Assembly: GCA_016205145.1 (NCBI GenBank)
Contig: JACQJH010000002.1
Span: forward strand, 1 to 32,000
DNA: 32,000 bases
Direction: 5' to 3'
DNA from: Candidatus Iainarchaeum sp.
GTDB lineage: Archaea > Iainarchaeota > Iainarchaeia > Iainarchaeales > JACQJH01
The translations under genes and the position numbers were made by a program. Positions 13,178 through 30,187 of the stretch are shown here, piece after piece. Numbering within the stretch: the stretch's first letter is position 1; each line of letters begins with the position of its first letter. The notes beneath the pieces were generated by a model that saw only the letters and a program-made list of their open reading frames with translations, was not told where the DNA came from and made no database searches.

Positions 13178-16100
13178 TCATGTTTTTGCCTGCTCTTCCC
13201 CCACTGAAACAACCGGCAGATCGTACACCGCCGGCTGGGCCCTGAAATTGTCGAAGTATGCGTTGCCGCTTCCGTTGTAGCCCCTTGCCCCTATCCTCGC
13301 GATTGTTTTCGCGGAAACGGTTTGGTTCAACAGCGAAGCCAAAAGGCTTGTTCCTGTCTCGTTCCAGATGAAATAATTCATGCTTGTCCCGCCGTTCGCA
13401 TAATCCATTGCAGCAAGGTAGTTCGTGTTTGCGCTTGGCATGTTTCCGCCGTCATTCATGTTCGCCCAATTCCCGCCGGTATTAGCCAAAAATTTGTTGT
13501 CGCCTATTCCAAGGCATCTCATGCACAGCGCGGTATCGCTTGCGCCCATTAGGTCGACAAGCGAGCCGTTGGAAATGCCGTCAGCCTGGATGGCGTAAGA
13601 ATACCTGTGCCGTTTGCCGTCAGGCATGCTTGGAATGCTTTGCTTGTACGCATTTGACGAGTTCTGCAAATTTGCGGAATACGCGCCGGAAATTTTCTGG
13701 ATCGCGGTTATGGAGCCGTCGCCCAGAGTCCAGTCGCTTACGTAGGCGTCCTCGAAGTCAAGCCAGTACGAGTAAATTTTTCGCATGTCGGACGGCGGGC
13801 TTGAAGCCGAGGGATTGCCGTAATAGATTGCGAGCACGCCGTCGTAATTGGTGTTTGCCTGCCATGCGGACTTCAATTGCACCACGACTTTTGTGCTTGC
13901 GGTATTGCATCCGGCAACTTGCCTGTCAAGCTCGATGTGCAGGTTTTCGTCGTACACGCGCAAATCGTCGCAGCCCGTCTGCATCTTTCCCGCCGCCACA
14001 AGGCTTTGCGTGTCAAGCGTTATCTCCTCTTGCATCGTGGTTTCGCTCAAGTCCGAAAAGGTGTAGTTTGCGTCCAAGGCTTCCGATTTCACAGAGACAA
14101 AAATCGGCTTTTTATAAGAATAGGCGGCGTTTTCCCATCCGCTGTAAACGCCCCTGAACGTTTGCAGTACAACGCTGAACGGCGCGAGCAAAAAGCTCTG
14201 GCTCGACACCTGCGGCATGGAACCGCCCACCGAAAAGCTGAGCGAAAAATTCGGGCTTCCAGCAATATGCTCAAAGCCCCTTTCAACGCTTGGCGGCGGC
14301 TTTGGCGGCGCAACATATCTGCCAGTATGCCCTGTGTCATGGCCGAACATTGGCCAAGGCATGTTCGCCGCGTTGTAGTCGCCGTCAAGGTCCCAGGCAT
14401 AGATTGAGCCGCGGTGCTTGGATTCCTGGTTGAAAAAATCGTAGTCGTCCTTGTATCCTGCGATAAGCTCGACTTTTCCGTCATTGTCAATGTCGTCGAC
14501 AATCGGTGCGGGGCTGTACCTTATGGATTTTTCAGGATACGTGCCGACCGGATGTTTTTGGCCCTCAATGCCTTTGGGAAATCCGTTCACACTGCTTCCG
14601 TCCGTGTTCCACGCGTAAATTCCGCCGTGGCTTTCCTTGTTGGGCTGGAACGCATTGCCCGCTGAAACCAGTATTTCAGGCGCATTGTCGGAATCAATGT
14701 CCGCCATTATCACGCCGTAATTTGCGTTCCAGTTGATTTCCTGCGGCCAGCCTGAAACCGTTTCGCCGTTTGCGCGCAGCAAATGCGTTTTCGGCTGCCC
14801 CGCATAATAATTATAATTGCTTGTTGCGGCGATTTCCAGGAAACCATCATGGTCAATGTCCCCCAACGCGGGGGTTGCCTCAAAGGACAATCCTTTCAGC
14901 ACGGGCCAGCCCGGAACAAGGCTTCCGTTTGCATCGAAAGCGTATATGCCGCCATAATCTGTACTGTAATTGTACCATTCGCCCGCGTTTCTGCCCATCG
15001 CACCGACAACTATTTCCAAATTGCCGTCATTATCAATATCTCCAACTGATGGCGATGCGAATATTGCGCTTGGTATGCTGACAGGCCAACCGTCCACGAC
15101 CGAGCCGTCCATGTTGTAAACGTAAATGGCGCCCGAATCAGAGTATTCGCTGTCGCCGGTTTGCTGTGCCGAAACTATTTCCAGTTCAGGATCATCATCA
15201 AAGTTTCCGACCGCAGGATAAGATTGGATTTTTGCGACGTTGCCCGCAAAAGGGTTCTGCGGCAAATCCCATGACGCGCGAATCGTGCCATTGCCGTCTA
15301 TGACAAGCATCTGTTCTGTTCCACCAACGCCTACATTTCCTTCAGGCCAGTTTCCCTTGACTATTATCTCGTCCGCGCCGTCATTGTCAAGATCGGCAAG
15401 CGTTATCGTATATTTATAATCTGTAGGCAATGGGATGTAATAATTGCCTGAAGACTGCCAAAATTTAAGGTCACCTACATTATTAAGTACGGACAGATAG
15501 CTGTTTGAGGCAACCACGATTTCCTTGTTTCCGTCCCCATCAATGTCGCCTATTGTCGGGATTGTCTGCGGGTAATCGTAAACATATCCCGACCACAACA
15601 AGGAACCATCATTTTTGAATGCTAGAATTTGAGCATTATCGACATAAGCAGTGATTATTTCCTTGTTTCCGTCATTCGTCAAATCCGCAACAACCGGTTC
15701 GAACAAGCCGCCGACAATGTACACGTCCCAAGGCGCATAATAATACCAGCCGTATTTGACAGGCCATCCTTTTTTCAGTGTCGGGTCCAGATAAACGTGG
15801 AAAATGTTTTCGTCGACGTTTCCCTGTGGCCTTTCAAGCGTGATTTTCATGTCGTACCATCCTGAAAGGCCCGAAGTGTCCCAAGTCGCCAACGTGCCAT
15901 TTTCAACAGGCTGCAGGCCATTGTTTGCAAGCGAAATGCCTGAATTGGACCACGTGGCATTCGGGTCCGTGGCGAAATTGAAATCGGGGCTTGCCGCGAA
16001 TTCTATCGTGTAGCCGTTGAAATTTCCGAGAACACTGCCGTTTATGTCAATAACATCGCCCGCCCTGAAAATGTCGTTGTTCAGCGGGCTTGTTGTTTTG

Positions 16101-18067
16101 ATGTTGTTCACAGTGAAGCCGCCGTATTCGGTTGTCTGTTGCCCATTTGCGTTTACGACCAATTTCAAGCCATAATCGCCGTTTACTGTATTCGCCGCGT
16201 CAAAATCGAACGTGCAGAGCAGGCCTTCCTCCGGAACCTGGCTTGAGCCGTTGCAGATTGTCTGCCACGGATCTGTTTCGTTTAAGTGGTAGTAAAGCGT
16301 GTACCCGCTGAAATTGTCGCCTGTCGCCGTGCCAAGAATGTTTGCAGTCGTGTCATTCAATGGCTGAAACGAATGTATTTCCGCGATCGGGGGCGCTCCG
16401 CTCAGCGATGCCGCAGCAAGAACGTCAATTCTTCCGTGGCCCTGAGTGTTCATCGGTTCGCCGATGTCAACGGCGGTATTCTGCAGCGCCATTTTAATTT
16501 CATCCGGCGACCAGCCAGGGTATTTTTGTTTTAAAAGTGCGGCGGCACCCGCTACAACGGGCGCTGAAGCGCTTGTGCCGCTGAAGGAACTATGTTTGCC
16601 GTCGTTAAAATAAGGAATACAATTATATGGCCCCCCGTCACCCGACCATTTTGCCACACAAATATTCACGCCTACTGCCACAACGTCAGGTTTGACAAGA
16701 TATTGATCGTAGCCATTCGAGTCAATCCATTTCACGGGCCCCCTTGATGAAAACGACGCAATTTCATCGTCTTTCCATGTTGCGCCGGCTGAAATGATCT
16801 TTCGACCCATCCCTGGGCTTGTCATTGATTCAGGGGAAGACCCGGCATTTCCTGCTGAAACAACCGCTACAACTCCTGCCCTGACTATATTATCGAATGC
16901 CTGGTTTTGCGTGTCATCGGGGTTTCCATTGCCCCCGAAACTATAATTTACCACGTCCAAATGGTCATCGAAGTTTCCGTCATTGTCCGGGTCAAGCGCC
17001 CAGTCAAGGGCTTCTATGACATCGCTCAAATATGCGCTGCCCTGGCTGTTCCCGACCTTTAGCGCGTAAAGTGTTGCGTCGCGCGCGACACCATTTAAGT
17101 CATAGCTTTCGTATCCCCCGTTTCCGGCGACAACAGATGCGACCAGCGTTCCATGCCCCTGGTCATCCATCGGGTCGTTATCCTCGTTAACAAAATCGTA
17201 TCCGCCAGCGACCTTTGCGCACAAGCCGTCCGTAAACTGCTGGGTCGTGCAGTTCCCGAAATCGTCGTGCGTGTAATCGATGCCCGTGTCCATTATTCCG
17301 ACCTTCACGCCTTTTCCCGTAATGCATTCCTTTCCGCTGGACGCGCATTGCCCGCCATCAATGTCAAGTGCCCAAACGTCATCCGCGTTGATTATTGGAA
17401 TGGTTTGAAAAAGCTGCATCTGGCTTTTCGTGTTCGGCGTGACAGATTTCACTCCGGGCAAATCCAGAATTTTTTCCGCGTCCTCTTGTGAAATGTCCAG
17501 TGCGATGCCGTTGAATGTTTTCGAGTATTCGCCTAAAATTGCGAGCGTCGGCGTGCCAAGGGTGCTTTGCGCGCTGATTTCCGCCAGGGTTTTTGGGGTT
17601 TCGCTGTTTTTGCTTAACGCGTTCAAAATGCCCGTTTTTGCCTGTTCGTGCTGGGATTCGATTTTTTGCGCGTGCAGTCTGAGTTCCGCCCCGATATCGG
17701 TTGTCCTGGCGCTTGCGGCGTTAAAAATTTCCGGATTTTCCGACGCGGTCGCATTGGCAAAAAGCTCTTCGGCGTTTTCGTTCGCTTCCTTCAGTTCCGC
17801 ATACTTCACTGCCAGCGGCGCCTCGTAGAATTCGACAATGAATCCGTTTGCGCCTTCAATGTTTTCATTCGGCCCCGGGCCGCCTGATTCCTGGCGCAAG
17901 GCAAAACCTGCGCCAGTAAGCGTATCCTGATTCGGATTTGCATCCGGAAAATCCGGTTCCTGTCCCTGTGCAACCACCGGGTTTGGCACGGCAAAGGCCA
18001 AGAAAAGAAAGAAAAGAACGAAACAAGGTAACAAGGTTCTTTTCAGGCTTGAGGCCATCCGATGCAA
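13178..18067 (-). CDS. Giant secreted subtilisin-like (S8) protease fused to an FG-GAP/VCBS beta-propeller region, a DUF2341-like domain and a LamG/ConA-like domain
   Basis: Signal peptide (LLPCFVLFFLFLAFAVPNPVVA). I9-like propeptide (FIVEFYEAPLAVKY). Catalytic D260 (GIMDTGID, nt 17288-17290), H305 (HGTLVAS) and S499 (GTSASAP). Eight DxDxDG-type repeats between aa ~795 and 1200 (DIDGDGNKEIVV, DLDNDGADEIIV, DIDNDGNLEIVV, and others), closed by WPMFGHDTGHTGRY. CDDLRVYDENLHIELDRQV...LAIYYGNPSA is DUF2341-like. No C-terminal TM anchor seen. Confidence 0.9.
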   Translation of the reverse strand: MHRMASSLKRTLLPCFVLFFLFLAFAVPNPVVAQGQEPDFPDANPNQDTLTGAGFALRQESGGPGPNENIEGANGFIVEFYEAPLAVKYAELKEANENAEELFANATASENPEIFNAASARTTDIGAELRLHAQKIESQHEQAKTGILNALSKNSETPKTLAEISAQSTLGTPTLAILGEYSKTFNGIALDISQEDAEKILDLPGVKSVTPNTKSQMQLFQTIPIINADDVWALDIDGGQCASSGKECITGKGVKVGIMDTGIDYTHDDFGNCTTQQFTDGLCAKVAGGYDFVNEDNDPMDDQGHGTLVASVVAGNGGYESYDLNGVARDATLYALKVGNSQGSAYLSDVIEALDWALDPDNDGNFDDHLDVVNYSFGGNGNPDDTQNQAFDNIVRAGVVAVVSAGNAGSSPESMTSPGMGRKIISAGATWKDDEIASFSSRGPVKWIDSNGYDQYLVKPDVVAVGVNICVAKWSGDGGPYNCIPYFNDGKHSSFSGTSASAPVVAGAAALLKQKYPGWSPDEIKMALQNTAVDIGEPMNTQGHGRIDVLAAASLSGAPPIAEIHSFQPLNDTTANILGTATGDNFSGYTLYYHLNETDPWQTICNGSSQVPEEGLLCTFDFDAANTVNGDYGLKLVVNANGQQTTEYGGFTVNNIKTTSPLNNDIFRAGDVIDINGSVLGNFNGYTIEFAASPDFNFATDPNATWSNSGISLANNGLQPVENGTLATWDTSGLSGWYDMKITLERPQGNVDENIFHVYLDPTLKKGWPVKYGWYYYAPWDVYIVGGLFEPVVADLTNDGNKEIITAYVDNAQILAFKNDGSLLWSGYVYDYPQTIPTIGDIDGDGNKEIVVASNSYLSVLNNVGDLKFWQSSGNYYIPLPTDYKYTITLADLDNDGADEIIVKGNWPEGNVGVGGTEQMLVIDGNGTIRASWDLPQNPFAGNVAKIQSYPAVGNFDDDPELEIVSAQQTGDSEYSDSGAIYVYNMDGSVVDGWPVSIPSAIFASPSVGDIDNDGNLEIVVGAMGRNAGEWYNYSTDYGGIYAFDANGSLVPGWPVLKGLSFEATPALGDIDHDGFLEIAATSNYNYYAGQPKTHLLRANGETVSGWPQEINWNANYGVIMADIDSDNAPEILVSAGNAFQPNKESHGGIYAWNTDGSSVNGFPKGIEGQKHPVGTYPEKSIRYSPAPIVDDIDNDGKVELIAGYKDDYDFFNQESKHRGSIYAWDLDGDYNAANMPWPMFGHDTGHTGRYVAPPKPPPSVERGFEHIAGSPNFSLSFSVGGSMPQVSSQSFLLAPFSVVLQTFRGVYSGWENAAYSYKKPIFVSVKSEALDANYTFSDLSETTMQEEITLDTQSLVAAGKMQTGCDDLRVYDENLHIELDRQVAGCNTASTKVVVQLKSAWQANTNYDGVLAIYYGNPSASSPPSDMRKIYSYWLDFEDAYVSDWTLGDGSITAIQKISGAYSANLQNSSNAYKQSIPSMPDGKRHRYSYAIQADGISNGSLVDLMGASDTALCMRCLGIGDNKFLANTGGNWANMNDGGNMPSANTNYLAAMDYANGGTSMNYFIWNETGTSLLASLLNQTVSAKTIARIGARGYNGSGNAYFDNFRAQPAVYDLPVVSVGEEQAKT

Positions 18068-22211: not shown

Positions 22212-22844
22212 GTGCCGGAACCTAAAATTGCCGTCATCGGCGTGCAGGGCGCGGTCGAAGAGCACATCGATTGCCTGAACGCCTGCAATTCAAACGCAAT
22301 CTGGGCCAGAAACGTTTCGGATCTTGAAGGCATTTCCGGCGCAATCATTCCGGGCGGCGAGTCGACCACAATCAACAAGCTCATGCTCGCAGGCGGAATG
22401 CATGCCAGATTGAAGGAAATGGCTTTGAATGGAATGCCGTTGCTCGGCACGTGCGCCGGCGCAATCCTTTTGGCGAAAGAGGGGGATTCGCAAACGCAAA
22501 AGACCGGCCAGGCATTGCTTGGCCTGATGGATTTCAAGGTCAACAGGAACGCTTTCGGCAGGCAGGCCGACAGCTTTGAAGCGAAAGTTCGGGTTCCGGA
22601 AATAGGAAAGCCGGATTTTCCAGGCGTGTTCATCCGCGCGCCCGCGGTCGAAGGCATTTCCGGCAGGGCGGAGGCGTTTGCAACGCTTGAAGGAAAGCCT
22701 GCCGGCGTGAGGCAGGGCAAAATGATTGCATTGGCATTCCACCCGGAGCTTTCAGGCGACCTGCGCATCCACTCGTTTTTCTGCGGGCTCGCCAAAAAAT
22801 TCGCACAGGCCGATGGCAATGCCCGTGAAGCCAAAAATTTATAA
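22212..22844 (+). CDS. pdxT: Pyridoxal 5'-phosphate synthase, glutaminase subunit
   Basis: KIAVIGVQGAVEEH, IIPGGESTT, GTCAGAILLA (catalytic Cys) and AFHPEL motifs. Start uncertain: GTG 22212 preferred, TTG 22164 or 22197 possible. Confidence 0.88.
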   Translation: MPEPKIAVIGVQGAVEEHIDCLNACNSNAIWARNVSDLEGISGAIIPGGESTTINKLMLAGGMHARLKEMALNGMPLLGTCAGAILLAKEGDSQTQKTGQALLGLMDFKVNRNAFGRQADSFEAKVRVPEIGKPDFPGVFIRAPAVEGISGRAEAFATLEGKPAGVRQGKMIALAFHPELSGDLRIHSFFCGLAKKFAQADGNAREAKNL

Positions 22845-22874
22845 TAGGGGTTAATCGTATTCTTTTAGGTTTGC

Positions 22875-24137
22875 GTGTTGTCCAAAGCCGTTTATTTCAG
22901 CCAGCTTGCCGGCAAGGCCGTCAGCGACTCCAAGGGAAGGGCCATTGGCACGCTTAAAGACCTGGTCATGGTTGACGGCGAGCTGACCGCGCCCATTGTA
23001 GCGCTGGTCGTGAAATCAAACGGTTCAAGGAAAAAGATTCCATGGAAATTCGTTGAAAGCGTTGAACGGCAGGTTTTCCTTGAGGCCGAAAAGGACGGCG
23101 TGGAATTCGGGGATGTCGCCGAAACCGACCTTCTTGTCAATGAGGTTGTGATGGACCGCCAGATAATCGACGTGAACGGCGTGAAAATCCTGAAGGTCAA
23201 TGACGTTTTGCTGTCAAAGTCCGGCGACCGGCTCGAGATAATAAGCGTTGATGTGGGGGCGGCGGGTTTTCTTCGCAGGCTCGGCATAAAGGCTTTTCCG
23301 CGCATTTTCGGCGGAAAAATCATTGGCGATTTTTTGATTCCGTGGAAGCATGTCGCGCCGCTTGAATTGAGTTCGGTTTCAAACATAAAGGTGAATGTCG
23401 AGGGCACAAAGCTCAACGAAGTGCATCCCGCGGACCTTGCTGATCTGCTCGAAGAGATGTCGCACAGCGAGCGCGCAATCGTTTTCAAGGCCATAAAGGA
23501 CGAGCAGGCCGCCGATACGCTTGCCGAAGCCGCGCCGGACGTTGCAAAGTCGCTGTTCAAGTCCCTGACCCAGGCGAGAATCGCGCAAATTCTCAAAAAA
23601 ATGGAGCCGGATGAGGCTGTTGATGTGCTGAGCCTTTTTCCGCATGAAACAGTTCTGAAAATCCTCAAGTCAATGGCCCCGGAAGAAGCCGCAAAGCTTT
23701 TGGGCCTGCTCTCTTTTCCGGATGAGGCCGCGGGTTCGCTCATGAACCCGAATGTGCTGTCCCTTGACAAGGATTTGACTGCGAAAAAGGCCATTTCAGT
23801 GCTTAGAACGAAAATGAGGGGCCTTGACAGGGCATATTACATTTATGTTGTGGACAAGAACAACAGGCTTTGCGGGATAACCTCGCTGAGGCGCCTGATA
23901 ATAGCCGACCCTGACAGGAAACTTGGCGATTTCATGGGAAAGCGCGCCTATCGCGTCAAAACTTCGACGCCGGTCGAGAACATAACAAAGATAATCAACA
24001 AGTACGACCTCTTGTCCCTGCCTGTAGTTGACGACCAGAACCGGCTTGTCGGCGCGATAGCGATTGACGATGTCTTCGAGGAAATCGTGCCCGCAAGCCT
24101 GAAAAAAAGGCGTTATACTCACGTCCACGTCGGATGA
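22875..24137 (+). CDS. Soluble PRC-barrel / MgtE N-domain / CBS-pair protein (MgtE cytoplasmic module without the MgtE membrane domain)
   Basis: PRC-barrel-like N-terminus (LAGKAVSDSKGRAIGTLKDLVMVDG). MgtE_N motifs HPADLADLLEEM and EPDEAVDVLSLFP. LLSFPDEAAGSLMNPNVLSL followed by two CBS-like segments. The ORF ends without hydrophobic helices. Confidence 0.8.
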   Translation: MLSKAVYFSQLAGKAVSDSKGRAIGTLKDLVMVDGELTAPIVALVVKSNGSRKKIPWKFVESVERQVFLEAEKDGVEFGDVAETDLLVNEVVMDRQIIDVNGVKILKVNDVLLSKSGDRLEIISVDVGAAGFLRRLGIKAFPRIFGGKIIGDFLIPWKHVAPLELSSVSNIKVNVEGTKLNEVHPADLADLLEEMSHSERAIVFKAIKDEQAADTLAEAAPDVAKSLFKSLTQARIAQILKKMEPDEAVDVLSLFPHETVLKILKSMAPEEAAKLLGLLSFPDEAAGSLMNPNVLSLDKDLTAKKAISVLRTKMRGLDRAYYIYVVDKNNRLCGITSLRRLIIADPDRKLGDFMGKRAYRVKTSTPVENITKIINKYDLLSLPVVDDQNRLVGAIAIDDVFEEIVPASLKKRRYTHVHVG

Positions 24138-24174
24138 TTTTTTTTGTCGGCTGAAGGCTTTTTTTGGTGGCATC

Positions 24175-25407
24175 ATGCCCGGATTTGACTGGAAAAAGAT
24201 TGCGTTGCTGTTGGCGATTGTCGGCCCCGGCATAATCACTGCCGCTGTCGACAACGACGCGCCCGGCATTGCAACCTATTCGGTTGCCGGCGCAAACTTC
24301 GGCTTTTCATTCATGTGGACGCTTATTCCGATTGCGGTTATACTGATTATAATCCAGGAAATGAGCGCCAGGCTTGCGATTGTCACGGGAAAGGGCCTCG
24401 GCGACCTTATACGGGAGCAGTTCGGCCTCAAGCTGACTTTTTTCCTTATGCTCGGCCTTGTGCTCACGAACATTGCTAATACCATTGCACAGTTTGCTGG
24501 CATCAGCGCGTCCGCGGAAATTTTCGGTGTGAGCAAGTATGTCGCCGTTCCGCTTGCCGCGATTTTCGTCTGGATTCTCATAACCAAAGGCACTTACAAG
24601 TCGGTTGAAAAGGCGTTCCTGCTTGCAACCGTTTTTTACCTGACATATGTCGTGGTCGGCCTGACTGCAAAGCCGGACTGGAATGCCATAGTGCCGACGC
24701 TTTTCCAGCCGCAAATGCGGTTTGACATGGATTTCCTGCTCATGCTTACCGCGCTCGTCGGCACAACGATTGCGCCGTGGATGCAGTTTTACATCATGGC
24801 TGCGATTGTCGAAAAGGGAATCAGGAAGGAGGACCTGAAGTACACGAAGATTGACGTCGTGGCGGGCAGCATTATCACGCTCATAATCGCATTTTTCATC
24901 ATAATGGTTACTGCAGTCGTCCTGCACTCCAACGGCATGAGGGTTGAAACAGCGGAGGATGCGGCCATGGCCCTTGCGCCTGTTGCAGGGGAATACGCTT
25001 CAAGGCTTTTTGCTTTCGGACTGCTTTCCGCCTCGCTTTTTGCCGCTGCGATTCTGCCTCTCGCCACGGCATTCTACCTGTCGGAGGCTTTCGGCTGGGA
25101 GCACGGCGTCGACAAGAAGTTTTCCGAGGCACCGTATTTTTACACGGCTTTCACTGCGACCATCGCGGTTAGCGCGCTTGTCATTATGCTGCCGGGCATA
25201 CCGTTGATACCGCTCATGGTGGCATCGCAGGCAATGAACGGGCTGCTTCTGCCGGCAGTCCTGATCCTGATGCTGTTGCTTGTCAATGACAGGAAACTCA
25301 TGGGCCCGTATGCCAATTCATGGAAGTCAAACCTTGTTGCGGGCCTGTGTTCGGCAATGCTCGTGCTCATGTCATTGTTCCTTGCCGCAAGCGTTTTTTT
25401 CAGGTGA
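24175..25407 (+). CDS. NRAMP/SLC11-family transporter with non-canonical metal-site residues (NRMT-like, possible Mg2+ transporter)
   Basis: NRAMP hallmarks GPGIITAAVDND.PGIAT and QEMSARLAIVTGKGL; about 11 hydrophobic helices. TM1 reads D28-A-P-G31 where canonical members have DPGN. TM6 reads T197-T-I-A200-P-W where canonical members have A-x-x-M-P-H. Confidence 0.85.
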   Translation: MPGFDWKKIALLLAIVGPGIITAAVDNDAPGIATYSVAGANFGFSFMWTLIPIAVILIIIQEMSARLAIVTGKGLGDLIREQFGLKLTFFLMLGLVLTNIANTIAQFAGISASAEIFGVSKYVAVPLAAIFVWILITKGTYKSVEKAFLLATVFYLTYVVVGLTAKPDWNAIVPTLFQPQMRFDMDFLLMLTALVGTTIAPWMQFYIMAAIVEKGIRKEDLKYTKIDVVAGSIITLIIAFFIIMVTAVVLHSNGMRVETAEDAAMALAPVAGEYASRLFAFGLLSASLFAAAILPLATAFYLSEAFGWEHGVDKKFSEAPYFYTAFTATIAVSALVIMLPGIPLIPLMVASQAMNGLLLPAVLILMLLLVNDRKLMGPYANSWKSNLVAGLCSAMLVLMSLFLAASVFFR

Positions 25408-25595: not shown

Positions 25596-26483
25596 TCAGT
25601 CTTTTTGAAGGGTTTTTGTCACTGCCCAGTCCACAAGGTCCTCGGCAACGCCGAGCAGATGGCTTTTTATCCTCGCCTTGCCGTGGCCCTTCATGCCGGT
25701 CGCGTGGATTTCCGGCAGGCCATCCACAAGGTCTATGAATTGTGCGGCGCGCTCGACGTTCAGGCCGGTTTTTTCGCTCCCGGTTTCCTCAAACATTCCT
25801 TTCAGGCAGTCTATGACCGGCAGCAGCTGCCCAAGGTATTTCCTGTCGGATTTTTCAAGCAGGATTATGTGGTCGGCGGCGCTTTCAAGATTTTTGGAAA
25901 CGCGTGAAATATAATGCAGGTCAATGGCCCTTATTTTCTGCTGCTGGCTGTCGGAAAGCGAGGAAATTATCGCCTTTTCTATCAGCACCTTTTTCCTGTC
26001 GATTTCCTCCTCGTGCTTTTCGATTATGTTCCGGTCGAAGCCTCCGGTCATAACCAAAACCATCGTCCTTATGCGCTGCACCATTGTGCGGAGCGTTGCA
26101 AGCGGGCTTTCAATGGTTATTGTCGACTCGCATGAAACCGAATTTTTTCCGATTTCAATGAGCTCTATGCCGAAAAGCCCTTTTTTTGAAAGCAGGCCTT
26201 CAAGCTTCGGCGGATTCCTGATTCGTATCCTGAAAGATTTCGCGGGGTTGACATAGCAGGCCATGACGAGCTTTTCAAGCGCGCCGATGCTGCATTTTTC
26301 CAGGTTTATTGAGATGCTGCGTGAAGGCCGTTCCGCGGCGCCAGAACTGATGATCAGCGAGCCGTCGGCCGATTCCTCGGCGGCTATTTTGGATGAAGCC
26401 CCCACGCCATGCTTCCTGCACCACGCCGTGGGCAGGTAAACATAGAACATGTTGCCGCTTTTCTGGACATTCCGGACCGGCAT
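25596..26483 (-). CDS. AbrB/SpoVT-domain plus PhoU-like regulator (archaeal phosphate-uptake-regulator type)
   Basis: N-terminal swapped-hairpin-like NVQKSGNMFYVYLPTAWCRKHGV. PhoU-like helices HEEEIDRKKVLIEK and ISRVSKNLESAADHI. Confidence 0.7.
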   Translation of the reverse strand: MPVRNVQKSGNMFYVYLPTAWCRKHGVGASSKIAAEESADGSLIISSGAAERPSRSISINLEKCSIGALEKLVMACYVNPAKSFRIRIRNPPKLEGLLSKKGLFGIELIEIGKNSVSCESTITIESPLATLRTMVQRIRTMVLVMTGGFDRNIIEKHEEEIDRKKVLIEKAIISSLSDSQQQKIRAIDLHYISRVSKNLESAADHIILLEKSDRKYLGQLLPVIDCLKGMFEETGSEKTGLNVERAAQFIDLVDGLPEIHATGMKGHGKARIKSHLLGVAEDLVDWAVTKTLQKD

Positions 26484-26498
26484 GAAAACCTAAATAGT

Positions 26499-26524
26499 TG
26501 CTAAATGTTAGCATTTATAATATT
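26499..26524 (-). promoter_or_regulatory. TATA box plus palindromic operator candidate immediately upstream of the AbrB-PhoU gene
   Basis: On the minus strand, ttataaat is followed by the palindrome TGCTAA-N3-TTAGCA (26499-26513), which ends 15 nt before the ATG at 26483. This geometry fits a leaderless transcript with an operator over the start site. Confidence 0.45.
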
Positions 26525-27863
26525 AGTTCCGTCTGGTTTTTGGCCTTTTTCCCGGCCCGGCGGACCCGTTCGTGCCCCCGACCACCACTTTGTCCACGAG
26601 CTTTTCGCGTTTTTCCTCTTCCCTTGCCGCCTGTTCGGGCATGGACTGGTGCGAATAGAAAACGCCCGCGCTCGTCGTGATATTGGTGAAAATTATTATC
26701 AGGAAAACAAGCTGGCTTATTTCCTGTGCATGGCCGTTGACATCAACGCCGATTGAAAGCGGATATGTCGCCAGCACCGCGGCGGCGAGGCCGCGCGCCA
26801 TCAGCGACACTATCACGGTTTTGTCGGCTTCCAGCTGCCTGTTCAAAAAGATCAGAACCTTCGCCGCAATGAGCCTTGCCGAGCCGATGAGCACGACAAG
26901 GAATGCCGCAGCCAGCAGGGAAAATACCGTGAATGAGTTCAGGTCGGTTATTATGCCGAGATAGATGAAAAAGAACGTTTTAACGAAAAACGCTATTTCG
27001 GACTGGAAAAGCTTTATGTTGGCGTCGATTTCGATTTCCCGCATTTTGAGGAAGCCCATTATTTCCTTTGAATTGCCGAGGACCATGCCGAAGACCAGCG
27101 CCGCGACCGCGCCGTTTCCCTTGGCGTATTCAACGACAACGTAAATGGCGAAAAGGGTTGCGATTGTCAGCAGGTACTGGTATTCCTTTATGCTGCCATT
27201 GAAATCGCGCAGTATTTTCAGCCATGCTATGCCGGATACGGCGCCGACAAAGCCGGCTATCGCGAACGCCCCGAGAATAGACTGCATGACCACCTGGAAA
27301 TCAATGCTCTTTGACACAATTATCTGGATAATCGTTATCGCGGCAATCACGCACAGAGCATCCGTTATGGTTGATTCAAGAGCCAGCATTGTCTTTGTTT
27401 CGTCCCTTGCAGTGGTTTTTTTCACTATTGGCACGATTATCGTGGAGCATGTGCCGCCTATTATCGCGCCGACAAGCAGGCCCACAAGTATGGGCCAGCC
27501 AAGGACGAAAAAGAATGCCGCGACAAACAGGAGCGTGATGACAAACGTCATGATGGTGAAAAGGGTTGCCCGGCTTATTTCCCTGAGGACATTCTGGAAA
27601 TTCAGGTGAAGGCCGCCCTCAAAAAGCATTATTATGAGCGCCAGGGATGCGAAAAACGGCGTGATGTCGCGAAGGAAGGATATTGTTGCCTGGTCAAAAA
27701 TGTTCAGCACCGGGCCCGCAAGCAGCCCTATTGCCAAAAGCAGTATGAAATCCGATACCCTGGTCCGTTTGAAAATTATCTGCCCGAAAAAACCCGAAAG
27801 GATTATTATCGAAATGAAAAGGAACGAAGTTATGACATCAACCATGCGAATCTCTCCGGGCAA
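26523..27863 (-). CDS. Cation:proton antiporter (CPA1, NhaP-type Na+/H+ exchanger), paralog A
   Basis: 446 aa, polytopic. N-terminal SGFFGQIIFKRTRVSDFILLLAIGLLAGP and IMLFEGGLHLNF motifs typical of Na+/H+ exchanger family proteins. Confidence 0.85.
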   Translation of the reverse strand: MPGEIRMVDVITSFLFISIIILSGFFGQIIFKRTRVSDFILLLAIGLLAGPVLNIFDQATISFLRDITPFFASLALIIMLFEGGLHLNFQNVLREISRATLFTIMTFVITLLFVAAFFFVLGWPILVGLLVGAIIGGTCSTIIVPIVKKTTARDETKTMLALESTITDALCVIAAITIIQIIVSKSIDFQVVMQSILGAFAIAGFVGAVSGIAWLKILRDFNGSIKEYQYLLTIATLFAIYVVVEYAKGNGAVAALVFGMVLGNSKEIMGFLKMREIEIDANIKLFQSEIAFFVKTFFFIYLGIITDLNSFTVFSLLAAAFLVVLIGSARLIAAKVLIFLNRQLEADKTVIVSLMARGLAAAVLATYPLSIGVDVNGHAQEISQLVFLIIIFTNITTSAGVFYSHQSMPEQAAREEEKREKLVDKVVVGGTNGSAGPGKRPKTRRN

Positions 27864-27898
27864 TATCTAATAGTGGTTCCAGGATTAAAATTTTCTGG

Positions 27899-29209
27899 TT
27901 AAAGCGGCTCCAACTGCATTTCCTTTGCCGTCCGGCCAGGCCCTACAATCACTTCCGAAACAAGCCCGTTTTTGCTGTCTGCATTCACGGGAACCCCGGA
28001 TTTCTGGCGCGAATTCAGGTAAAACACCCCGGCCATCGCGACGACATTTGTCAGGATTATTGCGATGAAAGTCAGGCGGATTATGGCAGGGCCGAATTCC
28101 CCCAAATCGACTCCGGCGGAAACTACGTATGTTGCCAGCACGGCAGTGGCGAGGCCGCGCGCCATCAGCGACACTATCGCAGTCTTGTCCGCCTGCAGTT
28201 CCCTGTTGAACCGGGCAACAACCTCTGTCGCGGCAACCCTCGCCAGCACCAGGAACACGACGATTGAAACGCCGAGGGCAATCAAAAGCGGCGTAAACTC
28301 GCCGGGGTCGATTATTATTCCAAGGTAGACGAAAAAAAACGTTTTGATGAAAAACGCTATTTCGGACTGGAAAAGCTTTATGTTGGCATCAATCACTGTT
28401 TCCTTCATGCCCAATGCGGCGGTTATTTCCCTGGAATTGCCGAGAATCAGGCCAAAAACCAAAACCGCTATCGGGCCGTTGCCCTTGGCGTATTCTGCAA
28501 AGAAATAGAGGACGAAAAGAACTGAAATTGTCAGCAGATACTGGTATGGTTTCACTGTTTCCCTGTGGTCGCGCAGTATTTTCAGCCAAAAAATGCCTGC
28601 ATAGGCGCCGAGAAACGCGGCAACCGCGAAAGCCGCAAGTATTCCCTGGAATATGCCCTGCACGTCAAGGCTCCTTGAAACCATTATCTCCAGTATGGCT
28701 ATCGCCGAAACAAGGCAGAATGCGTCGTTTATAGTGGACTCCAGAAAAATCATAGTCTTTGTTTCATTGGATGCGCGCAGGCCCTTCAGCATCGGAATTA
28801 TTATTTCCGCGCTCGTTCCCCCGAGCACCGCGCCAACCAGAAGGCTCACAAGCAGAGGCCAGCCGAAAGCCGACAGTATGCCGGCGACCAAAAAAAGCGT
28901 GAAAACGAAAACAAGGAAAGTGAAAAGCGTCGCCCTGCCTATTTCGCGCAGAACCTGCCTGAAGTTGAGGCCCATGCCGCCTTCAAACAGCATGAAAATC
29001 AGCGCGAGAGAGGCGAAAAACGGCGCAATGCCCCTCAAAAAGATTACTGTCGCATTGTCAAAAAAATGGAGCACGGGGCCGAGCAGAAGGCCGATTGCCA
29101 TGAGCAGGAGAAAGTCCGAAATGCCGGTCCGCCGGAAAAACGCCTGGGCAAAAAAACCCGAAAAAATCACCAATGCGAGGAAAAAGAACGCGGTTAAAAC
29201 GTCGGTCAT
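27899..29209 (-). CDS. Cation:proton antiporter (CPA1, NhaP-type), paralog B
   Basis: 436 aa, collinear with paralog A along its whole length (SGFFAQAFFRRTGISDFLLLMAIGLLLGP, FMLFEGGMGLNF). Shares a 39-nt identical DNA stretch with paralog A. Confidence 0.85.
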   Translation of the reverse strand: MTDVLTAFFFLALVIFSGFFAQAFFRRTGISDFLLLMAIGLLLGPVLHFFDNATVIFLRGIAPFFASLALIFMLFEGGMGLNFRQVLREIGRATLFTFLVFVFTLFLVAGILSAFGWPLLVSLLVGAVLGGTSAEIIIPMLKGLRASNETKTMIFLESTINDAFCLVSAIAILEIMVSRSLDVQGIFQGILAAFAVAAFLGAYAGIFWLKILRDHRETVKPYQYLLTISVLFVLYFFAEYAKGNGPIAVLVFGLILGNSREITAALGMKETVIDANIKLFQSEIAFFIKTFFFVYLGIIIDPGEFTPLLIALGVSIVVFLVLARVAATEVVARFNRELQADKTAIVSLMARGLATAVLATYVVSAGVDLGEFGPAIIRLTFIAIILTNVVAMAGVFYLNSRQKSGVPVNADSKNGLVSEVIVGPGRTAKEMQLEPL

Positions 29210-29221
29210 TCCATACCAGCC

Positions 29222-30187
29222 TCAAATCAGCGCTGTTTGCCCGTAAACGAACAGGGCGACAAACGCAATATACCCCAAAATCAGCAGGACGCCTTCCCTT
29301 TTTCCGAAGCTTCGCTTTACCTGCAGGAAATACAGCAGGCTGATGTTCGCTATCACCGAAAACACTATGAGACGCATGTAATTCGAGACCGCGTAAACCG
29401 GCGCTATCAGCAGGGATATTCCCAAAACAAGCGAGAGATTGACTATGCAGCTTCCTATGACATTGCCCACCGCCAGAGAATAATGTTTTTCCCTGACCGA
29501 GAGTATGCTGATGGAAAGTTCCGGCAGGGTTGTGCCGACTGCAATCAGCGTTGCGCCGATGAGCGTCTGGGAAAGGCCGGCAATTTTTGAAATTTCAATC
29601 GTGGAATTCACCGCAATCTGGGCGCCCAGTATGACCGCCGCTGTCGAGACCGTGAACAGCAAAAGCTCCTTCGGAAGGCCGCGGCCATGGAATTTTTTGG
29701 GTTCCTCGACCTCGATTTTGTGCTTTTTCGTAAGCGTGGTGAAAACGTAAAACAGGAAAATTATTATGAAAAAAATGCCCGTCCACCTTCCCGGATTATA
29801 CAGCAGAAGAAGCAGGGACATAAGCGACGTTCCCAGCAGGATGAGCGTGAGATTGCGCAGGGTTTCGGGGTTTATCACAATCGTGGCAAAAATCGCGGTT
29901 GCGCCCAGGACAAGGGCAACGTCTGCAATGTTGGCGCCGAAAACTGTTCCGAATGCGAGGTCGGAACCGTGATTGACCGACGCAATCACGGAAACGACAA
30001 GTTCCGGAAGCGATGTTGAAAGCGAAACCAGCAGGAAGCCAATCGTAAGCTCGCTCACGTGTATCCGCGCGGCTAGCTGTACGGCATACTTTATGACAAA
30101 CTGCGATGCCTTGTAGATTACCGCAAGCGAGCCGGCGAGCAGCAGCAGGTTCAAAATCAGTGGGCTTAAGGGCATTTTAACCGCCAT
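29222..30187 (-). CDS. Ca2+/cation antiporter (CaCA family, NCX/YrbG-like)
   Basis: Two alpha-repeat signatures: LLVSLSTSLPELVVSV and LIAVGTTLPELSISI. About 10 TM helices. Confidence 0.85.
   Translation of the reverse strand: MAVKMPLSPLILNLLLLAGSLAVIYKASQFVIKYAVQLAARIHVSELTIGFLLVSLSTSLPELVVSVIASVNHGSDLAFGTVFGANIADVALVLGATAIFATIVINPETLRNLTLILLGTSLMSLLLLLYNPGRWTGIFFIIIFLFYVFTTLTKKHKIEVEEPKKFHGRGLPKELLLFTVSTAAVILGAQIAVNSTIEISKIAGLSQTLIGATLIAVGTTLPELSISILSVREKHYSLAVGNVIGSCIVNLSLVLGISLLIAPVYAVSNYMRLIVFSVIANISLLYFLQVKRSFGKREGVLLILGYIAFVALFVYGQTALI

Follow-up and report, generated by a model that had tools for sequence, protein, structure and literature searches.

A pore-less MgtE-derived protein encoded beside an NRMT-clade Nramp transporter in Candidatus Iainarchaeum

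Why should the cytosolic sensor of a magnesium channel be encoded without its pore, and next to a transporter of an unrelated fold? The question is raised by a pair of genes in Candidatus Iainarchaeum sp., lying within the first 32,000 nt of contig JACQJH010000002.1. This whole stretch is referred to here as the window, and all positions are numbered within it. The two open reading frames (ORFs) follow one another on the same strand.

22875-24137, + strand: ORF A, GTG start, 420 amino acids (aa), soluble MgtE-derived accessory protein
24175-25407, + strand: ORF B, ATG start, 410 aa, SLC11/Nramp-fold transporter of the NRAMP-related magnesium transporter (NRMT) clade

Among prokaryotic Mg2+ importers the NRMTs form the fourth class, of known structure and selectivity; the partner gene, described in 2014, was passed over in the structural work. 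The pair in the window is a member of the MgtE-fragment/NrmT gene pair that has been published (Shin et al. 2014, PMC4072509), and we are close to certain of the identity of both of its parts. Our working model, which we hold to be probable though by some way less secure than the identification of the parts, is that of an NRMT accompanied by an MgtE-derived partner that damps import. Taken alone the locus adds little, and it is the survey of its relatives that sharpens the question.

ORF B matches the Nramp family of Pfam (PF01566) over the complete profile (positions 1-357 of 357) with an E-value of 5.3e-94. In the first and sixth transmembrane helices (TM1 and TM6) the two metal-site motifs, read directly from the sequence, are not the canonical ones.

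24256-24267, + strand: TM1 motif D28-A29-P30-G31, in place of the canonical D-P-G-N
24763-24774, + strand: TM6 motif T197-T198-I199-A200, in place of the canonical A-x-x-M

HMMER alignments to DraNramp and to the NRMT of Eggerthella lenta (EleNRMT) place D28, G31, T197 and A200 in the ligand columns, in agreement with the hand alignment D28-x-x-G31 / T197-x-x-A200 of an earlier note made on this DNA. The statement in that note that NRMTs have lost the Asn and the Met is borne out by the published signature of the clade, which is DxxG-TxxA/T as opposed to DxxN-A/CxxM in the classical NRAMPs (Ramanadane et al. 2022, PMC8806188).

EleNRMT (PDB 7QIA, 7QIC, 7QJI and 7QJJ) is the best solved relative of ORF B, resembling it in fold and length. 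Chain 7qia scores 384 bits (E-value 6.2e-114) and is 46.7% identical to ORF B across 394 ungapped positions; the next-best PDB chain has an E-value of 1e-22, and all chains other than 7qia score 84 bits or less. The residues D55, G58, T224, A227 and Q379 of EleNRMT correspond to D28, G31, T197, A200 and Q352 of ORF B, and W229 corresponds to W202, so that both proteins have a Trp in place of the first histidine of helix 6b. The two differ where Glu133 of EleNRMT is replaced by Gln106 in ORF B, and where a Gly is replaced by Pro30. Among 81 relatives the Asp and Gly of the TM1 motif are found in all, as is the Thr of the TM6 motif, with the Ala present in 77; the columns of Q352 and W202 are likewise constant or almost so. 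With E-values this extreme and site columns that hardly vary among these relatives, a chance feature is excluded. Q106 (24490-24492) and P30 (24262-24264) are all that is unusual in ORF B when it is set against these relatives; the former position is Glu in 69 and Asn in 10 of the 81 relatives, while the latter is Gly in 78.

It could be argued that ORF B is an ordinary proton-coupled importer of Mn2+ and Fe2+ of the MntH type, and that the odd residues are an artefact of alignment. The names given in databases do read 'Mn2+/Fe2+ NRAMP family transporter', and the NCBIfam MntH model gives a match, which at 118.6 bits is well below its cut-off of 430. MntH, DraNramp and ScaDMT share with ORF B the LeuT-type fold of PF01566, the TM1 Asp and the Gln of helix 10. 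They differ from it in that their Asn, Ala, Met and His are replaced in ORF B by Gly, Thr, Ala and Trp. In both the DraNramp and the EleNRMT alignments the Asn position is taken by G31 and the Met position by A200, and the helix-6b histidine positions of the proton-coupled Nramps, which belong to the proton pathway, are occupied by W202 and I207. The scores against the MntH structures, of about 80 bits, fall some 300 bits short of that for EleNRMT. The alignments and scores together rule out the classical MntH reading for practical purposes, and we consider it extremely improbable. The assignment of ORF B to the NRMT clade rather than to the MntH type, already made in the earlier note, is thus supported by its sequence.

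EleNRMT has the LeuT fold and transports both Mg2+ and Mn2+ uncoupled from protons, and its T224 is required for the transport of Mg2+, far more than for that of Mn2+ (Ramanadane et al. 2022, PMC8806188). ORF B most likely works as a carrier that is not coupled to protons and takes up Mg2+ and, in addition, Mn2+; its binding site, enlarged and made up of oxygen ligands only, would be formed by D28, G31, T197, A200 and Q352. The alternative of a channel, which had been raised in the earlier note, is unlikely for ORF B, its solved relative being a LeuT-fold carrier that operates uncoupled.

ORF A consists of a PRC-barrel, a second PRC-like domain, an MgtE_N domain, a CBS pair and a short basic tail, in that order. 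These are arranged as follows.

22887-23093, + strand: PRC-barrel domain 1, residues 5-73
23157-23363, + strand: second PRC-like domain, residues 95-163
23424-23726, + strand: MgtE_N helical domain, residues 184-284 (Pfam)
23739-24086, + strand: CBS pair, residues ~289-404 (Pfam)
24087-24134, + strand: short basic C-terminal tail, VPASLKKRRYTHVHVG, standing where MgtE has its plug helix

In a Pfam scan of ORF A the PRC family is matched in two stretches (2.1e-09), as is CBS (1.8e-16), and MgtE_N is matched at 1.8e-25; the MgtE pore domain (PF01769) was not found in that scan. With the NCBIfam model for mgtE, TIGR00400, the match is confined to positions 25-251 of the 450 in the profile, and its 171 bits fall below the cut-off of 232.75. 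ORF A has no five-helix pore domain with its pore Asp (D432), and ends 16 residues after the second CBS domain. The best sequence match in the PDB is the cytosolic domain of T. thermophilus MgtE (TtMgtE; 2yvy), aligned over residues 180-404 with an E-value of 1.4e-35. An AlphaFold2 model built from 42 homologues has a mean pLDDT of 81, and 2yvy is again the top match of this model in a Foldseek search (TM 0.85, target-normalised; rmsd 2.0 Å over 230 columns). The likeness to MgtE (2YVX, 2ZY9, 2YVY) is therefore to the N domain and the CBS pair, in sequence and in predicted fold, and it supports the identification of ORF A as the cytosolic sensor module of MgtE without the pore. This is as the earlier note had described the gene at 37 nt upstream of ORF B.

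Unlike MgtE, ORF A has about 175 extra N-terminal residues that form PRC-type barrels. The description of these in the earlier note as PRC-barrel-like was fair. Scanned alone, residues 5-73 score 24.5 bits with PF05239 and pass the cut-off, and in the model this domain is beta-rich with a pLDDT of around 90; residues 95-163 are borderline, at 20.7 bits against a cut-off of 21.2. The second domain, rather than the MgtE module, is the best-conserved part of the partner family, with D94, Q96, D99, N109, D110, R134 and W157 invariant in the alignment of the 42 homologues. Such a pattern of conservation could reflect an additional metal site or a docking surface. At the other end of the protein, residues 411-420 have pLDDT values below 50.

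The Mg2+ sites of TtMgtE involve E258 (Mg2), D259 (Mg3), D91 and D247 (Mg4), D226 and D250 (Mg5), D95 (Mg6) and E59 (Mg7) (Maruyama et al. 2018, PMC5882242). In the alignment with 2yvy the MgtE_N domain of ORF A has D214, D246 and D250 at the positions of E59, D91 and D95, while its CBS pair has D378, D399 and E402 at those of D226, D247 and D250. All six ligand positions within the N domain and the CBS pair are thus acidic. By contrast, the plug-helix ligands E258 and D259 are replaced by K410 and K411 in the tail, and ORF A differs from MgtE in lacking the pore, the plug helix and the ligands of Mg1, Mg2 and Mg3. Judged from these aligned positions, the Mg2+ clamp of MgtE between the N-domain and the CBS domains is retained in ORF A, and the plug helix is not. 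Conservation of the six positions in the family is uneven. A column count over 69 partner sequences shows Asp at the D95 position in 66 of them and an acidic residue at the E59 and D250 positions in 57 and 47 respectively; for the D91 and D247 positions the acidic count is about 40 each. The D226 position is weakly conserved, being Asp in only eight.

The CBS domains of TtMgtE also bind ATP (Tomita et al. 2017, PMC5529423), where F227 is stacked on the nucleotide and its loss abolishes binding. Of the ATP contacts, ORF A keeps Y322 and R339 at the corresponding positions, with D188, N203 and F227 replaced by R340, G355 and L379. Since the stacking Phe has become Leu379 and both D188 and N203 have been replaced, sensing of ATP by the CBS pair of ORF A is unlikely.

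How general is the association of these two proteins? A scan with one genome per species gave at least 600 NRMT relatives, of which the best 80 loci (50-58% identity) were analysed. These span many bacterial phyla, together with metagenome-assembled genomes (MAGs) of the Nanoarchaeota and Woesearchaeota (DPANN). In 74 of the 80 an ORF for MgtE_N and CBS domains lies directly upstream of the NRMT gene on the same strand, and the co-occurrence of pore-less MgtE genes with NRAMP genes, which the earlier note had proposed as a check, is therefore found. In four of the six exceptions the contig ends less than ~600 nt upstream of the NRMT gene, and L080 is odd; the partner is clearly missing only in L065 and L075, both Peptococcaceae. 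The median distance from the partner stop codon to the NRMT start is 28 nt, and in 11 pairs the genes overlap. All full-length partners in the survey share the PRC region with ORF A. The pairing of the MgtE fragment with NrmT is thus very widespread.

Relatives of both proteins are linked to Mg2+ by M-box riboswitches. In the two Peptococcaceae loci that lack the partner, an M-box lies directly 5′ to the NRMT gene (L065, 4548-4714; L075, 4594-4760). In Pelotalea chapellei (L073, 3451-3616) the M-box precedes the pair of partner and NRMT genes, and in a Clostridium genome (L083, 3663-3829) it precedes a stand-alone partner homologue with no adjoining Nramp gene.

These riboswitches bear on the possibility that the pair serves first and foremost for manganese, in which case ORF B imports Mn2+ and ORF A senses it, as has been suggested for the A. 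capsulatum pair (Shin et al. 2014). The A. capsulatum transporter rescued a mutant in Mn2+ transport fully and an Mg2+ mutant only in part (PMC4072509), EleNRMT transports Mn2+ besides Mg2+ (PMC8806188), and no M-box was found in the window, either by an Rfam scan or with an nhmmer profile made from four related M-boxes. The absence of an M-box is, however, what would be expected for an archaeal host, and M-boxes do precede the genes of close relatives. Moreover, the site signature of ORF B is intact, including T197, whose equivalent T224 in EleNRMT is the residue on which Mg2+ transport depends so much more than that of Mn2+, and ORF A retains acidic residues at all of the MgtE Mg2+-ligand positions of its N and CBS domains. 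We therefore regard a primary role in manganese transport as quite improbable.

If Mg2+ is the principal substrate, what does the partner do? The mechanism that we have in mind is as follows. ORF A would dimerise, and close on binding Mg2+ in the manner of the cytosolic domain of MgtE. The closed form would dock on the cytoplasmic face of ORF B, possibly by way of its PRC region or its basic tail, and in so doing would slow import when there is sufficient Mg2+ in the cytosol. Both the physical contact between the two proteins and the direction of regulation are inferred. That ORF A regulates ORF B in trans is a proposal on which we are nearly evenly divided, leaning slightly towards doubt.

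The main rival is that the two proteins are co-expressed without forming a complex. ORF A would then be an independent sensor of free cytosolic Mg2+ (or another ligand), a buffer, or a chaperone, that acts on other targets or passes metal on, leaving the NRMT unregulated at the level of protein. Such an arrangement would account for the outcome of co-expressing the A. capsulatum partner with its transporter, which gave no further rescue, and a chaperone role was raised in the same study (Shin et al. 2014, PMC4072509). It would also account for partner homologues that do not adjoin an Nramp gene, such as those of L082 and of L083, the latter with its own M-box, and those of L092 and L093, which lie in a cluster of era, DUF502 and CNNM/CorC-type genes. 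The failure to find a natural fusion, in the search of limited reach described below, is likewise in its favour. Yet the genes are adjacent in 74 of 80 loci, often with overlaps or very short gaps, and the non-adjacent homologues are more distant (31-35% identity), perhaps representing paralogous subfamilies. Co-expression without contact also sits less easily with the membrane-anchored variants described below, the three that were checked all lying beside an Nramp gene. On balance we consider this rival unlikely, though it is a good deal more plausible than a manganese system.

The partner family extends beyond the gene pair. Its distant members were examined by a reverse look-up, which covered seven soluble partner homologues on long contigs. 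An intact Nramp gene adjoins two of these (P0125 and P0193). Beside P0131, an archaeal homologue, the one Nramp gene call is a remnant of 49 aa (L094, 4344-4493), which might reflect the decay of an NRMT gene or a problem of assembly. The remaining four (P0188, P0197, P0239 and P0218) have no adjoining Nramp gene, and two of them, P0239 and P0218, are in the era / DUF502 / CNNM-CorC cluster. The latter arrangement is seen in L092 (2501-5810) and L093 (2501-5829), where PRC-MgtE_N-CBS homologues are found in a ybeY-dgkA-cdd-era cluster that is followed by DUF502 and a gene for an Mg2+ transporter of the CNNM/CorC type. From this setting, the PRC-MgtE_N-CBS module may serve other Mg2+ transporters too.

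Around ten matches to the partner family, 594-611 aa in length, carry in addition a C-terminal membrane domain resembling that of MgtE. It has five helices, but the pore Asp432 of TtMgtE and the GGNTGNQ motif are lost. Three of these long variants (599-611 aa) were checked, and all three are encoded directly upstream of an Nramp gene.

L084, 4001-5815: P0248
L085, 3001-4836: P0219
L087, 3001-4800: P0147

As all three sit upstream of Nramp, the partner lineage is placed at the membrane beside the transporter. The soluble partner may have had its forerunners in these long, membrane-anchored variants, and this suggests a series leading from MgtE, via an anchored partner with a dead pore, to the soluble partner. 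We put forward, tentatively and with less conviction than regulation in trans as such, the extended scheme in which the PRC-PRC-MgtE_N-CBS protein would be a true regulatory subunit of the NRMT. Its ancestor would be an MgtE in which the pore degenerated first, as in the anchored variants of about 600 aa, and then was lost, so that the sensor of the MgtE channel came to gate an unrelated LeuT-fold carrier in trans, via the second PRC-like domain acting either in docking or as an extra metal site.

A number of points weigh against a regulatory partner of an Mg2+ importer. ORF A lacks the plug helix and the Mg2 and Mg3 ligands that transmit the signal in MgtE, and for this reason the MgtE mechanism is not simply transferable to it. 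The C. acetobutylicum NrmT complements without its partner (PMC4072509), and EleNRMT alone transports in liposomes (Ramanadane et al. 2022, PMC8806188); as both function alone, the partner is dispensable for transport. To these are added the failure of the A. capsulatum partner to increase rescue and the more complete rescue by its transporter of the Mn2+-transport mutant, the lack of an M-box in the window, and the presence of Gln at position 106 of ORF B where EleNRMT has its one retained Glu and most relatives also have Glu. Of the seven distant soluble homologues, only two adjoin an intact Nramp gene, with a third beside the remnant. Lastly, no natural fusion of partner and NRMT, which would have served as Rosetta-stone evidence, was found using a concatenated query; this is a weak negative, as there were 29 matches under the E-value cut-off, apparently comprising only proteins of ~455 aa or more.

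The sole protein found with both types of domain is P0249 (469 aa), which spans an adjacent pair in an organism of high GC content. It was considered as an MgtE_N-Nramp fusion and rejected, since its middle section is out of frame and Arg-rich, indicating a frameshifted gene call.

The pairing and the feedback hypothesis were published in 2014, and the metal-site signature in 2022. Shin et al. [quoted passage not shown] They speculated that the fragment acts in cytoplasmic feedback regulation or as a metal chaperone. In their operons from C. acetobutylicum (Ca_c0685) and A. capsulatum (ACP_2976/ACP_2977) the MgtE-fragment gene is directly 5′ to the NrmT-group gene, as is ORF A to ORF B. In C. 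acetobutylicum the fragment gene is split in two, whereas ORF A is a single gene. The A. capsulatum pair has the adjoining MgtE-like gene and no riboswitch, and the M-box that many published nrmT operons possess, unlike the window, is not a defining feature.

The terms PRC-barrel and CBS do not occur in the main text of Shin et al. 2014 (PMC4072509), and archaea are not mentioned in that paper. No mention of the partner protein was found in Ramanadane et al. 2022 (eLife, PMC8806188), where MgtE refers to the channel and the words 'operon' and 'CBS' do not occur. Nor is the partner discussed in those later NRMT and SLC11 papers that were examined. The searchable literature contained no paper that brought together NRMT and CBS, NrmT and PRC-barrel, or PRC-barrel and MgtE, and four points were not found there: the universal PRC region in full-length partners, the acidic ligands retained without those of the plug helix, the partners with a degenerate pore, and the partner homologues located away from Nramp genes. 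What the survey brings to the question is a partner that is near-universal beside the close relatives of the NRMT, with PRC-type barrels bearing an invariant acidic motif, an Mg2+ clamp kept without its plug helix, and a form anchored in the membrane whose pore is dead. Such features provide constructs and residues with which to ask whether a channel sensor was reused to control a carrier.

We turn now to the setting of the pair. It is preceded on the same strand by pdxS and pdxT, the stop codon of the latter being 30 nt from the start of ORF A. Two elements of the intergenic sequence are listed here, each from direct reading.

22838-22845, + strand: TATA-box-like TTTATAAT, overlapping the pdxT stop codon, ~30 nt 5′ to the GTG of ORF A
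24138-24174, + strand: spacer between ORF A and ORF B, 37 nt, with two oligo-T runs

The element TTTATAAT is a possible archaeal-type promoter, which from its position would give a near-leaderless transcript. The spacer contains a GGTGG motif resembling a Shine-Dalgarno sequence at 24166-24170, 4 nt before the ATG of ORF B. An intrinsic terminator between the two genes was considered and discarded, the terminator-like match at 24122-24136 being at the level of chance for the region. The oligo-T runs could nevertheless matter in an archaeon.

The closest homologues of ORF A and ORF B include proteins of Diapherotrites and other archaeal MAGs; together with the TATA-like element and the GGTGG motif they are in keeping with an archaeal (DPANN-like) host, without by themselves proving it. 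The window is ordinary chromosome. The order of its genes is:

before the pair: DDE transposase; UbiA and glycosyltransferase genes; thiamine biosynthesis genes; class I/II-type ribonucleotide reductase; 1629-aa subtilase with FG-GAP repeats; thrC, thrB, pdxS and pdxT
the pair: ORF A and ORF B
after the pair: PhoU-like gene; two Na+/H+ exchangers; Na+/Ca2+ exchanger

The genes just downstream make up an ion-transport cluster on the minus strand (25596-30187), comprising a PhoU-domain protein (a weak match), tandem Na+/H+ exchanger paralogues of 446 and 436 aa, and a protein of the Na+/Ca2+ exchanger family. The subtilase (13178-18067, minus strand) has a Peptidase_S8 domain with an I9 inhibitor prodomain in addition to its FG-GAP repeats, and is probably a secreted or surface protease. 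The DDE transposase (PF01609; 15-1190) is at the edge of the window, in the part with the lowest GC content (0.44, compared with ~0.52).

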